This document shows positions 2,785 through 46,157 of a stretch of DNA of 64,000 nucleotides, piece after piece; positions within the stretch are counted from its first letter, which is position 1, and each line of letters starts with the position of its first letter. Origin of the DNA: Candidatus Multivoradales bacterium (lineage in GTDB: Bacteria > Acidobacteriota > Thermoanaerobaculia > Multivoradales > Multivoraceae); NCBI GenBank assembly GCA_965223325.1, contig CBDCWI010000001.1, forward strand, positions 160,001 through 224,000, given 5' to 3'. The position numbers and the translations under genes are program-made. The notes under the pieces are model-generated. The model worked only from the letters and a program-made list of their open reading frames with translations, did not search any database and was not told where the DNA came from.

Positions 2785-2850
2785 GGTTTCGCACTGTTGC
2801 CAGGGTACATCGCAACCCCAACAGCAGCCTCCCGATCACGGATCCTGGTC

Positions 2851-3561
2851 ATGCCGAAACCACCACCATTCTCGACAGAAATCCCCATCGACCGCTCACC
2901 AACCGTCGAGGACCCCGGCCTCTCCGGAGACCTGGCCTTCGTCACTCTGGCGGCGGTTGTCGATGTCGGACTCGGCGGTCTCGGACTGCAAACTGAAGAG
3001 GCCCTCCGCGTCGGCCACTCCTACACCGTCGACCTCGAGTCGTCCAACCTCGAGCTGACCGGCAAAACGGTATGGAACCGTCAGGTCGGTACCTTCCGCC
3101 AGAACAACGGTCGCATCGTGCCCCGCTACCGGGCCGGTCTGGCGTTCGAGAGCGAAACCATCACGGCCCACCAGGAAGCGTTGCAGGAGTACCTGATTCT
3201 CAACGCCGTCTCCGAAACCGCCTCGCGACGCCCCTCACCGCGCTACCACCTGCGCTCGGACACTCCGCGGGTACTCCACACCCGCTACCCGTTCACGGTC
3301 GACTCGATCAGTGTGTCCGGAATGATCGTCAAGGTCGACCAGCTCCCCACCCCCGATGCAGTCCTTCACCTGCGTCTCGGCCTCTCCGACAGCGAACAGC
3401 TCGACCTCACCGCCCGCCTCAGCGACGTCTACCAGACCTACGACAACGACAGGATCGACACCCGTGTCGCCCTCGAGTTCGTCAACCTCTACGCCGGCAC
3501 CCGCGAAACCCTGGGTAACTGGGTCCGCGAACGACGTTCACTCACCCCCCTCATCCAGTAG
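2851..3561 (+). CDS. Tandem PilZ-domain protein (putative c-di-GMP receptor)
   Basis: RxxxR (RRPSPR) followed by an SISVSG variant of the DxSxxG motif; N-terminal PilZ-like half with DVGLGG, GKTVW and AGLAF. Confidence 0.7.
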   Translation: MPKPPPFSTEIPIDRSPTVEDPGLSGDLAFVTLAAVVDVGLGGLGLQTEEALRVGHSYTVDLESSNLELTGKTVWNRQVGTFRQNNGRIVPRYRAGLAFESETITAHQEALQEYLILNAVSETASRRPSPRYHLRSDTPRVLHTRYPFTVDSISVSGMIVKVDQLPTPDAVLHLRLGLSDSEQLDLTARLSDVYQTYDNDRIDTRVALEFVNLYAGTRETLGNWVRERRSLTPLIQ

Positions 3562-3890
3562 CTCCAGCAACCGAACCACACCCACCCTCCCGGCCAAAGG
3601 CCCCGCTGCCGCGTTTCCTCTTTCCCGACAGCAACCCGACCGAACAGCTCACCCGCACCACCGCGCGGCCAAGATGATCTGAGATCTGAGATCTGAGGCG
3701 TGGAACACCACCCCACGAAAGTTCAACGGCGCGACTCCCAGTACCGCTCTACAGAAAAAGGAAGCGCGTGCCTGCGGCCACCACGCCTCAGATCAACACT
3801 CCGGAGGCGCACGACAAGCGAACCGAAGTCCTCCGCCGCACCTGCAGGGCCACCCACCAACCGCCAACGGCAACCGCAACGGACCGCTTG

Positions 3891-5800
3891 GATACGCCGG
3901 GATAAACCGGCATGGAGAAAGGAATGAGAGAGTCCCACCCTCGAAGGGGTAGCGACCCAGAGGGTCCCCGAGTCATGCGCCGGCTCCCGCGAGGGTGCGG
4001 TGAAGCGTTGACAGGGGCACACACAGGCCGGGTATTGAGCCGCGAAATAAGAATTTGGGAGTGCCGACGCTGTCAAGCGAAGCGGAAGGCGAGACTCCGT
4101 AGCGCGCTATCGCGAGCTCTGCGGCGACTCCCCGCGGTCGTAGACCCTGTGCATGTGTGGAATCTCCATGCGCGAGAACCGGGAGATCCGCGATCTGGCC
4201 AGTTGGGTATCTGGTCCGCATCGGGAAGGCTAGAGGCCGTAAGCCGATGACGCACGGATGGCGGAAGTCAGACAGGCCCGTAGTACCTGCGAAGTCGTCG
4301 AACAACGGTGGGAGACCAGCGGCGGAGGCGGTGGAGGGAAGGGGCCTGGCCAAGGGGAACACGGGCAAGCAAAACGCACCCCGGACACAGAGCCGGATGG
4401 AGAGTGCGAGCAATGCGCTGGGCCGTGTACGAGAAGCCGCCCGCAGGGGCAAGGAAGTGAAGTTCACAGCGCTTCTTCACCACATCACGGTCGAGCGACT
4501 CCGGAGCGCATTTGACGTGTTGCACCGAGACGCAGCGGCAGGAGTGGACGGAGTGTCATGGAGCGAGTACGCAGAATCTTTGCTGAGCAATCTCGAGGAC
4601 CTGCACTCTCGTGTCCACCGTGGGAGCTACCGGGCGAGTGCGACTCGTCGCGTCTACATCGAGAAATCGGATGGGCGGTTCCGACCGCTTGGCATCGCCA
4701 CGTTGGAGGACAAGATCCTTCAGCGCGCCGTCGTCTCGGTGTTGGATGCGATCTACGAGGAAGACTTTCTCGGGTACTCATACGGATTCAGGCGAGGCCG
4801 CAGCCAGCACGATGCTTTGGATGCGCTATTCGTTGGAATCACAAAGCGGAAGGTGAACTGGGTGCTCGACGCAGACATTCGTGGGTTCTTCGATGCCCTG
4901 GACCACGAGTGGCTGGTGAAGTTTCTCGAGCACCGTATCGGAGACCGTAGGATCCTTCGCCTCATCCAGAAATGGCTGAGGTCCGGAGTGATGGAAGACG
5001 GTAAGTGGCACGCGAGCACGCGGGGGACTCCTCAGGGGGCGACGATTTCGCCTCTCCTCGGGAACGTGTACCTGCACTACGTGCTCGATCTCTGGGTCCA
5101 GCAGTGGAGGAAACGCAACGCGCTTGGGGACATGATCTTCGTGCGCTACGCGGATGACTTCATCGTTGGATTTGAGAGGCAGGAGGAGGCAGAACGATTC
5201 CTCGAGGAACTGAACCTGCGACTCCGTGACTTCTCGTTGGAGATCCAACCCGAGAAGACGCGCCTGCTGGAGTTTGGCCGCTTTGCGGCCTACAACCGAC
5301 GCGCGCGAGGTCTCGGGCGGCCGGAGACCTTCGAGTTTCTAGGCTTTACGCACTGCTGTGCGCAGTCTAGTCGAGGGAGGTTCTTGCTGAAGCGCATCAC
5401 GAGCCGCCACCGAATCCGCAGGACACTGAAGGCTGTCGGTACGGCCCTTCTGGGACACCGACACTCGCCGCTACCAGAGCAAGGTCTCTGGCTGGGATCC
5501 GTGGTGCGAGGCTTCAATGCCTACTACGGCGTACCCGGCAACTCAGCGGCGTTGAACGCCTTTCGACAGGAGGTCATTCGGCACTGGATGCGCGCTCTGC
5601 GCCGACGCAGTGACAAAGACCGCACGTCCTGGAAACGGATGTGGGCCCTGGTGGCCCACTACCTACCCAAAGCCCGAGTCCAACATCCCTGGCCTGATGA
5701 GCGACTTGTCGTCAATACCTGAGGCAGGAGCCCAGTGCATTAGCAGTGCACGCTGGGATCTGTGCGGGGGGCGCCGGGCAACCGGCGCTCCTACCGCGAT
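3891..5800 (+). mobile_element. Group II intron (IIB-like, resembling bacterial class E), apparently complete
   Basis: Removing 3891-5800 restores the repeat sequence GGACCGCTTG|CGCCGGACC; DV GAGCCCAGTGCATTAGCAGTGCACGCTGGGATC (5728-5760); DVI with bulged A ending ...CTACCGCGAT; EBS1 CAAGCG (4074-4079) pairs with IBS1 CGCTTG (3885-3890). Confidence 0.95.
4247..5722 (+). CDS. ltrA: Group II intron reverse transcriptase/maturase without endonuclease domain
   Basis: AAGVDG, RPLGIATLEDKILQ, SYGFRRGRS, WVLDADIRGFFD, GTPQGATISPLLGNVYLH, RYADDF, maturase RGFNAYYG; no HNH tail; start may be 4247 or 4397. Confidence 0.96.
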   Translation: MTHGWRKSDRPVVPAKSSNNGGRPAAEAVEGRGLAKGNTGKQNAPRTQSRMESASNALGRVREAARRGKEVKFTALLHHITVERLRSAFDVLHRDAAAGVDGVSWSEYAESLLSNLEDLHSRVHRGSYRASATRRVYIEKSDGRFRPLGIATLEDKILQRAVVSVLDAIYEEDFLGYSYGFRRGRSQHDALDALFVGITKRKVNWVLDADIRGFFDALDHEWLVKFLEHRIGDRRILRLIQKWLRSGVMEDGKWHASTRGTPQGATISPLLGNVYLHYVLDLWVQQWRKRNALGDMIFVRYADDFIVGFERQEEAERFLEELNLRLRDFSLEIQPEKTRLLEFGRFAAYNRRARGLGRPETFEFLGFTHCCAQSSRGRFLLKRITSRHRIRRTLKAVGTALLGHRHSPLPEQGLWLGSVVRGFNAYYGVPGNSAALNAFRQEVIRHWMRALRRRSDKDRTSWKRMWALVAHYLPKARVQHPWPDERLVVNT

Positions 5801-6364
5801 CGCCGGACCAGGATGATCGTGATCTGAGGCGTGGTACACGACCCAGCGAAAGCTCAACGGCGCCACTCCCAGTACCGCTCTACAAGAAAAGGAAGCGCGT
5901 GCCTGCGGCCACCACGCTTCAGATCAACACTCCGGAGGCGCGCGACAAGCGAACCGAAGTCCTCCGCCGCACCTGCAGGGCCACCCACCAACCGCCAACG
6001 GCAACCGCAACGGACCGCTTGCGCCGGACCAGGATGATCGTGATCTGAGGCGTGGTACACGACCCAGCGAAAGCTCAACGGCGCGACTCCCAGTACCGCT
6101 CTACAAGAAAAGGAAGCGCGTGCCTGCGGCCACCACGCTTCAGATCAACACTCCGGAGGCGCGCGACAAGCGAACCGAAGTCCTCCGCCGCACCTGCAGG
6201 GCCACCCACCAACCGCCAACGGCAACCGCAACGGACCGCTTGCGCCGGACCAGGATGATCGTGATCTGAGGCGTGGTACACGACCCCACGAAAGTCAACG
6301 GCGCCACTCCCAGTACCGCTCTACAAGAAAAGGAAGCGCGTGCCTGCGGCCACCACGCCTCAGA

Positions 6365-7675
6365 TCACGGATAGATCTTGTAGAGCATCCGGGGGTAGGG
6401 AATCGTTTCGCGGAGATGGGGAACACCACTCATCCAGGCGACGAACCGTTCGAGGCCCATGCCGAAGCCACTGTGCGGAAAGCTTCCGTACTTGCGCACA
6501 TCGAGGTACCACTGGAAGGCCTCGATCGGGAGTTCGTGTTCGTGAATTCGTTCGAGCAACAGGTCGTGGTCGTGGATGCGCTGGCTGCCGCCGATGATCT
6601 CACCGTAGCCCTCGGGGGCAAGAACATCGAGCGCCAGCGCGGTCTCGGGGCGTTCGCCGTCGGGCTGCATATAGAAGGCTTTGGTTTTCGCCGGGTAGTG
6701 AGTGATCATCACCGGCCGATCGAAACGTGAGGCGAGCAGCGTTTCGTCTTCGGCCCCGAAGTCGTCGCCCCACTCGAGCGACTTGCCCGCTTCAGCAAGC
6801 ACCGCGACCGCCTCGTCGTAGGTCATGCGCGGAAACGGCCCGGCCACTGCCTCGAGCTTGGCAATGTCCCGATCGAGAACGTCGAGCGGGCCTCGGCAGC
6901 GCTCTAGAACCCTACCGACGACCGAGACCAGGAAGTCCTCGGCAAGCTCACAGAGGCCATCGAACTCGAGAAAGGCGACCTCAGGCTCCACCATCCAGAA
7001 TTCAGTGAGATGGCGGCGCGTCTTCGATTTCTCGGCGCGAAAGGTCGGGCCGAAGCAGTAGACCTTGCCGAGTGCAGCGGCTGCAGGCTCCAGGTACAGC
7101 TGGCCCGACTGGCTCAAAAACGCAGGATCGCCAAAGTAGTCGGTCTCGAACAACGTCGAGGTACCTTCGCAGGCAGCCGGCGTCAGAATCGGCGAGTCGA
7201 TGAGGCTGAAGCCACGATCGTAGAAGAAGTCACGGATGGCGTGCACCGCTTCACTCCGAATCTGGAGGACCGCACGCTGTTTACTCGATCGCAACCAGAG
7301 GTGGCGATTGGCCATCAAGAACGCCGTGCCGTGTTCCTTCGGCGTGATCGGGTACTCGTCGGCCAGCGACACGACCCCGATCGAGTGCGCCTTCAGCTCG
7401 ACGCCCGTTGGCGAGCGCTTGTCGGCCGCAACCTCGCCGATGCAACGGATCGTCGACTCCTGGGTGGCCTCTTCCAGAGCGTTCCATGTCTCTTCACTGA
7501 CGTCGCCGCGACTCACCACGACCTGGACGACTTCACTCCCGTCGCGGAGCTGGATGAAACCGATCTTGCCGCTCGAACGTTTGTTGGCGATCCAGCCGGA
7601 AAGTTCGACTGTCTCGCCCACCAACTCGGGCAGGTCACGGACCCATACGCGTTCTGTCTTTTCCTCTCCACTCAT
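6365..7675 (-). CDS. asnS: Asparagine--tRNA ligase
   Basis: OB-fold N terminus, [49 protein letters not shown]. Confidence 0.95.
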
Positions 7676-45197: not shown

Positions 45198-46157
45198 TCA
45201 GGGGCCGGCACGCACCGCTTGGGCCGTCTCGAAGGGCAGCGGACTCGGAAACGTGCCTTCGGGAAACTTCACATCGGGCTCGCCGGCTCGCTGTCGGTCC
45301 CGCGCCAGCCGATGCGCCCGCCACACCCAGTCAAAAGCTGCCAGCAGTCGCTGCTCCTCATCCTTGTTGCTCGCAATCACCAGCGGACAGGGCCCCAGTG
45401 CCATTGCCTTGGGAGTCCTGAAGGGGCTCAATCGAAGGAGCTTCCACTGGCCCTTCGGCTTCGTACCTTCGCGTTTGTGACGCTCTCGCGTTTCCCGTTC
45501 GATGTCGCGAATCATCTCGCGCACCCACTCGCAGTAGTCCTCGTCGCTCAGGTGGTCAAAGCCCGGGAGCTTCGAAATCACCACCGTTTCCTTCTTCGTG
45601 AAGTCCTTCTTCGTCAAGTGACGCCCAGCCTTCGTACGCTTGGCCCGGCAATAGGCCGTGTGGTCGACCCACTCGCCCTCGAGCTCGAACTTCCCTTCCC
45701 ACAAGGCCCGCGCGACGGTCACCCCAGGCCACTTGAGAGGTGAGGACACAAGGCCCGCCGCACAGCCCTGCGCCAGGACGTAGCGGAAACGCTTCGACGT
45801 ATCGGCAGGGTCGCGCCCGATAAAGGACGGTTTGTAGGGCGTTTCCCACTTCGGGCCCTTCCAGCCATGGCGAATGCGGATCTCGACGCTCGTCTGCTGC
45901 TGGACGCGGTACATGAAGTCCGCCAGCTGCTGGGCGTCTCGTGCACCGACCAGGAAATGGTGGTGGTTGACCTGATAGTCGACGGCGTAGATGGGGATCT
46001 CGGTCTTGCGCTGTGCGCGGCCGATGATGCCGTTCATGTGTGATCGCTGCTCAGAGTCGGGCTTGAGCAGGAAGGTTCCGTTCGTAATGCGGGCGGTCAG
46101 CATGACTGGTTCCGGCCCGCTGTCGGTCGTTGGTACGTATCTCGGTTTTGCTCCCAT
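45198..46157 (-). mobile_element. HUH/Y1 transposase-like protein (REP-associated tyrosine transposase/IS200 fold)
   Basis: T.R..N..FLL N terminus, HUH motif NHHHFLV, GPKW..PY, catalytic-Tyr region RYVLAQ..AAGLV..P..WP. Confidence 0.75.

Follow-up and report, generated by a model that had tools for sequence, protein, structure and literature searches.

A group II intron and the DNA repeats that house it were studied in a stretch of 64,000 nucleotides (nt) from Candidatus Multivoradales bacterium (contig CBDCWI010000001.1 of assembly GCA_965223325.1, positions 160,001 to 224,000 of the forward strand), which is called the window below and whose numbering is used unless another contig is named. 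The intron occupies positions 3891 to 5800 of the plus strand. Judging from the sequences of its copies and of the sites that they fill or leave empty, it is very probably an active intron without an endonuclease domain (En-minus), which has recently multiplied by sequence-specific retrohoming into the target (C)GGACCGCTTG/CGCC, the slash marking the insertion point here and throughout, of structured repeats that are specific to this lineage.

The whole genome (6.69 Mb in two contigs, C1 and C2 below) was searched with blastn, and 14 full-length copies of the intron were counted, 12 of them at 100% identity and two at 99.95% (one mismatch each), with a 521-codon frame intact in all 14. The further matches were a 239-nt 3' fragment, which is a 5'-truncated copy, and a match of 36 nt. 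In a DNA run of the same organism, the depth is about 218 over the intron vs about 22 in its flanks, that is, about ten times higher. Thirteen of the 14 full-length copies were observed at ...GGACCGCTTG/CGCC in one repeat family, with the same conserved flanks, and the truncated copy carries the 3' flank common to these 13. A hidden Markov model (HMM) of the family was built from the 13 rebuilt insertion sites, and with a threshold of E <= 1e-3 nhmmer gave 183 matches in the genome, grouped into 60 loci. A first-pass annotation of the window had proposed that the intron lineage is specialised on a palindromic repeat family as its homing site; the census bears this out, as the full-length copies, with one exception, and the truncated copy share a single family position rather than unrelated sequences with only a short motif in common, and the family extends far beyond this locus. 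The features around the intron in the window are as follows.

3690 to 3794, plus strand: hairpin module H1, with arm GATCTGAGGCGTGG (3690 to 3703), a C/A-rich loop and arm CCACGCCTCAGATC (3781 to 3794).
3795 to 3890, plus strand: 5' half of core 1 (the 5' exon), ending in intron-binding site 1 (IBS1) CGCTTG (3885 to 3890) within GGACCGCTTG.
3891 to 5800, plus strand: group II intron, 1,910 nt, delimited by comparison with empty sites and by the blastn census; one of the 14 full-length copies.
5801 to 6021, plus strand: repeat unit 2, made of the 3' half of core 1 (the 3' exon, starting with CGCC), hairpin H2 (arms 5818 to 5834 and 5912 to 5925) and the 5' half of core 2.
6012 to 6025, plus strand: empty target 1, GGACCGCTTG/CGCC, with its junction at 6021/6022, read from the sequence.
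6022 to 6242, plus strand: repeat unit 3, 99.5% identical to unit 2.
6233 to 6246, plus strand: empty target 2, GGACCGCTTG/CGCC, with its junction at 6242/6243, read from the sequence.
6243 to 6368, plus strand: terminal partial unit, made of a 3' core and hairpin H4 (arms 6260 to 6276 and 6352 to 6368, 17/17 complementary).

The limits of the intron are exact, for the flanks GGACCGCTTG/.../CGCCGGACC are contiguous at both empty junctions and other registers do not fit; the two identical empty targets, and a complete intron encoding a reverse transcriptase (RT) that splits GGACCGCTTG/CGCC, had both been described in the first-pass annotation and stand as described. Tandem Repeats Finder reported a period of 221 with 2.6 copies and 98% matches over 5801-6367. 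An extra copy of the unit (201 nt, 95%) lies upstream of the intron, where nhmmer matched the 5' half of core 1 at 163786-163890 in genome coordinates, and degenerate repeat sequence precedes H1 from about 3663. The palindrome arms CGTGATCTGAGGCGTGG and CCACGCCTCAGATCACG are 17/17 complementary with about 76 nt between them. The repeat had been called a multicopy palindromic tandem repeat; the exact 221-bp unit was found at this locus only, a divergent member of the wider family, and it is the diverged family with its 60 loci that is multicopy.

The choice of site cannot be explained by a short match. Uninterrupted CGCTTGC sites number 1,795 genome-wide, and 114 of them (6.4%) fall within the repeat family, therefore IBS1 plus one base cannot account for 13 of 14 copies. 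The longer sequence GGACCGCTTGC was found at 90 sites genome-wide, 79 of which are in uninterrupted family units. Among the 142 uninterrupted units that span the site, 114 hold CGCTTGC and 50 hold the exact 15-mer, and 13 of the 127 family sites with CGCTTG/C are filled. The segment shared around the conserved target measures 11-15 nt, and 11 nt upstream of the insertion point are kept in the occupied units. Site specificity would thus need more than the pairing of IBS1 with exon-binding site 1 (EBS1) of the intron, and the intron would have spread by retrohoming into one conserved site.

The units that house the intron vary widely between loci, both in their flanks and overall (mean column identity 70% among representative units), and the introns within them are identical; this combination therefore indicates independent and recent insertions into units that already existed. 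It bears directly on another route, in which the intron inserted once and its carrier unit was then copied by repeat mobility or recombination. A family that is dispersed and arrayed has certainly multiplied somehow, which is what this route requires. Nevertheless, introns that are identical or 1 nt apart sit in units that differ in flanks and hairpin stems, the window's occupied unit resembles its own array-mates, each array holds one occupied unit (as chance would give, with a probability of 0.22), and one copy lies outside the family altogether. Hitch-hiking of this kind is largely refuted and extremely improbable. In the contigs of four DNA runs, the intron was never seen in linker 2 or 3 of the window's array, and no contig ran across an empty linker 1, the one split by the intron; as the repeats break these contigs, the two absences say nothing either way. 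Two internal joints of low depth were noticed in the read contigs (4.78 vs about 218), and the loose intron ends in runs X5-X7 match other loci of this genome, so these runs do not represent independent organisms.

Since the site is extragenic and identical empty sites adjoin the occupied one, the earlier description of it as a harmless and renewable homing site is reasonable. Insertion would be nearly neutral for the host, and tandem duplication of units would supply fresh sites. A partnership between repeat array and retroelement, which had also been proposed, is unsupported, as there is no sign of a benefit to the repeat from the intron.

As to the intron itself, the following parts were recognised.

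3929 to 4147, plus strand: domain I core, Rfam RF02005, 180.6 bits, E 1.7e-53, model positions 1-225 of 225.
4074 to 4079, plus strand: EBS1 CAAGCG, in a hairpin loop, covarying with IBS1 in related introns.
4247 to 5722, plus strand: intron-encoded RT/maturase, 491 aa from the ATG at 4247 (frame open from 4157), matching RVT_1 and TIGR04416.
5728 to 5760, plus strand: putative domain V-like hairpin of 33 nt, recognised by eye in the sequence.
5764 to 5797, plus strand: putative domain VI-like hairpin with bulged A 5793, 7 nt before the 3' end, proposed from the sequence and from relatives.

The match to RF02005 (group-II-D1D4-6) covers the full model length at 180.6 bits vs a gathering score of 49. 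EBS1 forms the terminal loop of a hairpin in the Rfam alignment and is the 6/6 complement of IBS1 CGCTTG. This pairing, already pointed out in the first-pass annotation, also covaries, because related introns have changed both sides (an EBS1 loop UAAGCG with an inferred 5' exon end CGCTTA). The intron protein is an RT/maturase of the type encoded in domain IV of group II introns; TIGR04416 matches it at 342.6 bits vs a cut-off of 300, Pfam gives RVT_1 only, and relatives found by tblastn align with the protein from residue 7. Solved group II RTs in the PDB match it at E 1e-36 to 1e-41, matches which do not discriminate between classes D, E and F. No H-N-H endonuclease domain was found in the 491 aa, where Pfam and NCBIfam returned RT/maturase models only. 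En-minus intron lineages comprise classes C, D, E and F (PMC4424553), and the protein is accordingly of the predicted En-minus RT/maturase type seen in these classes. The domain V-like and VI-like hairpins are both kept in related introns.

Several points weigh against so simple a picture of an active and strictly site-specific intron. One full-length copy, at C2:2349730-2351639, lies outside the family at GAGCGCTTG/CAGT, between two co-oriented genes, sharing GCGCTTG/C without the repeat. No EBS2-IBS2 pairing was found, as the expected internal loop AAAUAAGAAUUU does not pair with the exon. An EBS3 had been suggested at the G after GGAAGGC, the base following the EBS1 hairpin, as partner of the first 3'-exon base; the comparison with related introns gives this no support, for they have an A at that place and the first 3'-exon base is C in both. 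Rfam RF00029 (domain V/VI) has no match to the intron at E <= 1. The 5' end reads GAUACG (3891-3896) and not the usual GUGYG; related introns seem to begin with GUACG, a boundary placed from their EBS1, so that an extra A stands here, and the 3' end ...GAU has the AU that fits AY. Despite the 5' end, 14 near-identical copies exist, and it is this copy number that argues for a competent ribozyme.

The repeat unit measures about 275 nt and is described here on the intron strand. It consists of a weak leader, a core closed by a helix (P1), the segment AAAGTGAC and a 16-bp hairpin (H). After the leader come CGTTCCATCGAAGCC.GGAA and then TCCGCGGCGCGCG; the variable interior of the core holds the kept blocks GCAGTCC, TGCAGGGCG and GGCC; and the 3' part runs from CGGACCGCTTG/CGCCGC through AAAGTGAC into H. 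Some units are single, but in most loci 2-7 of them follow one another in tandem, with a period of 130-310 nt; the periods (221, 260, 234 and others) are as a rule not multiples of three. P1 is a covarying helix of 8 bp that joins GCGGCGCG and UGCGCCGC. In 36 representative units (38 were chosen, and two with an insertion left out), 97.9% of its cells are paired, with double changes in three pairs (14 cells); none of 500 shuffles reached the observed score, and slid controls paired in 21-58%. The intron is inserted between pairs 2 and 3 of the 3' strand of P1, and the last, closing pair is G.U in 34 of the 36 units. In H, 16 positions are paired with 92-100% complementarity over 48 loci, position 17 is paired in 58%, and beyond it pairing is at the level of chance. 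The loop of H, mostly 76-84 nt long, is composed of 40% C, 30% A, 20% G and 10% T, and the stems are diverse, 49 terminal hairpins having 46 distinct 9-nt stem cores. Hairpins of the H type are almost confined to units (48 of 57). Beyond P1 and H no consensus structure was obtained: RNAalifold recovered P1 alone in the core, a scan of column pairs there found no other helix with more than two covarying pairs, and folds of single cores were mutually discordant, with no column pair at a mean pairing probability of 0.25.

Some units depart from this plan. Tandem H-type hairpins were noticed beyond the matches of the core HMM at C2:91005-91585, 1641020-1641438 and 952725, therefore the family is probably somewhat larger than 60 loci. 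At C1:421637-422837 the core interior of the units is enlarged by about 100 nt of inserted sequence that contains CCCGGGC repeats, and this region therefore tolerates large insertions. A subfamily has an extra hairpin of the C5...G5 type, about 25-35 nt long, a few bases past the intron site (CGCC/TTTTTCCCCCTCCGGGGG...); its loci are C2:510626-513552, 3795025-3795746, 4105375-4106034, 4113472-4114135 and 4366985-4367652, two of which hold the intron. Four units of 130 nt without 3' core and hairpin were observed at C2:700868-701391 (minus strand). Their ends, ...GGACTGCTT, fall 1 nt from the position of intron insertion, and the unit that comes immediately downstream of them is occupied and, by eye, about 88% identical to them. 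The 3' part is likewise missing from units in C2:603854-604046 and in C2:4134142-4134977, the latter with a junction 4 nt ahead of the site.

With the unit thus described, it can be asked whether the intron recognises a stem-loop (P1 or H) plus a short IBS1, in the manner of class C (IIC) introns, rather than a long sequence. Its compact RNA, with 356 nt before the open reading frame (ORF) and no EBS2 found, would suit such targeting, as would a site within a covarying helix and about 15-25 nt upstream of the 16-bp hairpin; a 7-nt match alone cannot explain 13 of 14 copies, and IIC introns do use terminator and attC stem-loops (PMC4424553). Yet IIC introns insert directly downstream of their stem-loop and rely on a short IBS1 only, and here the large hairpin is 3' of the site, sequence conservation reaches at least 11 nt upstream of it, and the ectopic copy shares GCGCTTG/C without any repeat. 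The closest intact intron proteins elsewhere, with 59-62% identity, also belong to introns in other contexts; in three of them the context is, we assume, the start of a gene for the transposase of an insertion sequence (IS). Targeting by structure is therefore quite unlikely, and recognition of a long sequence in the repeat is preferred. The likeness to IIC introns (PMC4424553) extends to the lack of an endonuclease, the compact ribozyme and a repeated, hairpin-bearing extragenic target near gene ends; the differences are a site that is conserved in sequence, 5' of the big hairpin and inside another helix, its orientation antisense to the neighbouring gene, and a match to a different Rfam D1 model (RF02005).

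BLAST searches of 30 relatives did not find the repeat, nor did a covariance model applied to 56 genomes of this taxonomic family, in each of which 48 candidates were scored. It was not seen around 15 loci of related intron proteins or the relatives' intron fragments either, or downstream of five synthetase orthologues. In one scan of metagenome contigs, the exact 22-base target pattern had no match; a 24-base pattern of the EBS1 hairpin occurred in a single contig (L114), whose intron is a different one (81% over 100 nt). The genome from the same genus is a distant one, with 77% protein identity for the synthetase. Its intron relative (L021, G001:C2:1352289-1353190) is degenerate, lacking the 5' end and an internal part; its EBS1 loop differs (AGUUAGGAAAU), its 3' exon reads CACGCC, and it lies outside any repeat unit. 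In three loci of a Solirubrobacterales metagenome-assembled genome (L009, L012 and L015), related introns with 59% protein identity interrupt a conserved coding sequence (...LLPPS..WLPEDHL), which reads like the N-terminus of a putative IS5/IS1182-type transposase.

The first-pass annotation had also stated that En-minus introns depend on replication-associated or single-stranded DNA (ssDNA) targets. GC skew was observed to be negative over all of C1 and over C2:0.36-3.51 Mb and positive elsewhere, which fits one chromosome of 6.7 Mb in which C1 is inverted relative to C2, with the putative origin near C2:3.51 Mb and the terminus near C2:0.36 Mb. With this layout no replication-strand bias was seen, either among the introns (8 co-directional, 6 head-on) or among the repeat loci (28 vs 32), therefore such a link is not visible here.

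What the repeat is can be approached from the strand on which its pairing is kept. On the intron strand, the 944 base pairs in 59 distinct arm pairs of H include 26 G.T, 4 A.C and 15 other non-Watson-Crick pairs, counts that overstate independence as array-mates are related; terminal hairpins alone give 12 G.T, 1 A.C and 7 others. Variants within arrays (C>T 42, G>A 59, A>G 48, T>C 39) display no mutation bias that would match the G.T excess. Because G.T exceeds A.C without such a bias, and because the last pair of P1 is mostly G.U, pairing appears to have been selected on the intron-sense strand, as RNA or as ssDNA, and the repeat would act as a single-stranded nucleic acid of that strand.

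It is on this ground that we tentatively place first, while holding it with less than firm confidence, the reading in which the units are a multicopy structured RNA in intron sense, so that the intron would be a true intron whose splicing restores P1. It agrees with the wobble statistics of both helices, with helices that covary, sequence blocks that are kept and a core interior that tolerates insertions, and with the need of a spreading intron for sense transcription. Read-through from an ORF upstream of the array is a possible source of the latter.

2797 to 3561, plus strand: upstream ORF of 254 codons, from the ORF list and a crude gene call based on GC at third codon positions (GC3), in the same orientation as array and intron.

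Several points speak against an RNA in this sense. The whole unit folds to a lower minimum free energy in gene sense (-127 vs -110 kcal/mol, in 33 of 37 units), which we attribute to a G/U-rich composition rather than to function, and G.T wobble is tolerated in ssDNA hairpins as well. No conserved promoter motif was seen ahead of the core in 38 regions upstream of first units, and a sigma-70 scan of 3300-6700 gave no site; the four terminator-like sites lie inside the intron on the minus strand. No U-tract follows the hairpin. Rfam 15 gave no match to the repeat unit at E <= 1; the scan covered 3 kb of the window plus 18.5 kb from four further arrays, and the intron model was the only one to match.

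The genes beside the arrays, taken from crude GC3-based calls, introduce a third party. In the window this is the following gene.

6365 to 7675, minus strand: class II aminoacyl-tRNA synthetase gene, 436 aa, convergent with the array, matching Pfam tRNA-synt_2 and tRNA_anti-codon.

Its TGA stop (6365-6367) is inside the outer end of hairpin H4. The arrangement is general: the gene beyond the 3' end of the array is on the opposite strand in 54 of 60 loci, and of the 54 loci that could be analysed, 43 have its stop codon within a few nt of the hairpin's outer end, 34 of them at one fixed offset, therefore the stop codon forms stem positions 13-15 of H. Since the terminal hairpin holds a stop codon of the opposite strand, the intron lies outside the coding sequence and antisense to the gene. 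The abutting stops are TAG in 36 cases, TGA in 5 and TAA in 2, vs 1,659, 2,478 and 248, respectively, among all called genes. The products of the 20 abutted genes scanned, out of 49, are unrelated; 18 have Pfam matches, mostly housekeeping (class II aminoacyl-tRNA synthetase, BamA, IMP dehydrogenase, argininosuccinate synthase, arginase, YchF, kinases and others), and 2 have none. Synthetase orthologues in five relatives keep the ..IYP-stop end and are followed by unrelated sequence, therefore the element begins at the stop codon. Another genome of this taxonomic family (L040, G007:C1) has a different tandem array of about 190 nt, missed by the repeat-family HMM, immediately behind the stop of the synthetase orthologue, and arrays that abut stop codons may be a wider habit of this bacterial family.

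Such a position would be expected of a cis-acting 3'-end element of the abutted gene, a terminator or stabiliser, in which the intron is tolerated in antisense. With the hairpin beginning at the stop codon in those 43 loci, the more stable folding of the gene-sense RNA and a TTTT run about 6 nt downstream of the hairpin on the gene strand, this reading has points in its favour; it has to contend with wobble statistics that favour the other strand (the G.U of P1 would be C.A on the gene strand), with terminators repeated 2-7 times without evident use, and with orthologues in five relatives that do without the element. On balance we consider it rather unlikely.

The repeat could also be non-autonomous mobile DNA, either of the repetitive extragenic palindrome kind (REP, with its compound forms REPIN and BIME, the bacterial interspersed mosaic element) or a miniature inverted-repeat transposable element (MITE), whose ssDNA hairpins are moved in trans, e.g. 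by a Y1 transposase, with a preference for TAG/CTAG. The family is extragenic, dispersed and arrayed, its hairpin base reads (C/G)TAG...CTA(G/C), and strand-specific wobble fits recognition of ssDNA; stems are common to several loci within subfamilies, and the family was not found in relatives. The Y1 domain (PF01797, IS200/RAYT-like, RAYT being the REP-associated tyrosine transposase) has 28 matches in the genome, whose open frames measure 174-412 codons. Many of them lie in clusters near C2:4.455-4.487 Mb and C1:2.126-2.144 Mb, and one is in the window at about 45789-46049 (minus strand). Only one of these 28 ORFs adjoins an array, about 325 bp away, and no Y1/RAYT is flanked by units; 46 stem cores in 49 hairpins amount to no conserved terminal repeat, a loop of about 80 nt is unlike that of REPs, and a fixed gene orientation in 54 of 60 loci is unexpected of a symmetric inverted-repeat element. 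IS200/IS605-type elements show a replication-strand bias, and the repeat loci have none. An omega-RNA is unlikely as well, since no TnpB-type protein (PF07282) was found in the genome. Units are overlapped by three large ORFs, which were considered as links to a transposase and ruled out, being ordinary enzymes or regulators.

Taken together, the three readings of the target may be ranked, on what can be drawn from sequence, with the intron-sense RNA as the tentative first, hairpin-type mobile DNA behind it as possible though doubtful, and a gene-sense 3' element as less probable again. A more far-reaching form of the RNA reading is that the units are new multicopy RNA genes, transcribed up to the convergent stop codon with P1 restored by splicing, and, at its boldest, that the intron RT helps to build the arrays. 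This would be improbable as matters stand; in favour of the boldest form, the four 130-nt units at C2:700868-701391 end as copied free 5'-exon RNA would.

Compared with known systems, the behaviour of the intron is a clear case of a known kind, namely site-specific homing into a multicopy extragenic target, and it is the kind of target that would be new, as it appears to fit no curated RNA family or classical repeat type. The mobile intron RmInt1 inserts into ISRm2011-2 of Sinorhizobium meliloti. Like the present intron, RmInt1 (class D, En-minus; PMC5894124) is near-identical and multicopy and has a repeated, sequence-defined homing site where it does little harm; it targets an insertion sequence, whereas the present intron sits in a structured repeat that is non-coding, displays no strand bias and has GAUACG as its 5' end. 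Group II targets on record are sequence-specific homing sites, terminator motifs and attC sites (PMC4424553). In Pseudomonas putida KT2440, 2 of 9 copies of a group II intron are reported to be associated with REP (PMC1525189), which are likewise extragenic palindromic repeats; the association is far tighter here, with 13 of 14 copies at one exact position.

Among repeats, the REP/BIME/REPIN group with its RAYT transposases (PMC2817692) resembles the family described here in being extragenic, of high copy number, hairpin-forming, arrayed and lineage-specific, with a GTAG-like tetranucleotide head. REPs are palindromes of 20-40 nt with a conserved sequence and a GTAG head; the units here have a (C/G)TAG head and arms of 16 nt, and differ in their length of about 275 nt, their 80-nt loop, a separate core, a variable stem, a fixed orientation to the stop codon and the absence of a flanked RAYT. 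Nor do they resemble a MITE, which has conserved terminal inverted repeats and a target-site duplication and inserts in either orientation, for their stem sequence is variable and 54 of 60 loci have the one orientation to the gene. Mycobacterial interspersed repetitive units (MIRUs) are tandem, intergenic and fixed in orientation, and their ends overlap stop codons; they measure 40-100 bp and contain small ORFs in gene sense. The arrays here share the tandem intergenic arrangement, the fixed orientation and the overlap with stop codons, and are unlike MIRUs in periods that are not multiples of three and in a selected strand that is antisense to the gene. In Pseudomonas fluorescens SBW25, copies of the TwoAYGGAY RNA are found with tandem REP arrays at a fixed distance (bioRxiv 10.64898/2026.09.22.753630). 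Like the repeat here, TwoAYGGAY is a multicopy structured motif in dozens of intergenic regions that is coupled to tandem arrays; its sequence and structure are unrelated, and no intron is involved there. A literature search of limited coverage turned up no published account of the repeat, nor of any group II intron that has specialised on a repeat of this kind.

A mobile intron inside a repeat family is one selfish element housed in another. The genome studied here thereby offers a natural system for the choice of sites by En-minus introns, for the question whether they need replication, given the lack of a strand bias here, and for the harmless persistence of retroelements. The target is perhaps the more unusual object of the two, with about 180 structured units and a terminal hairpin that encloses the stop codons of unrelated housekeeping genes. 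An expressed repeat would amount to a new multicopy RNA, and in mobile DNA the targeting of stop codons would be a new insertion preference.

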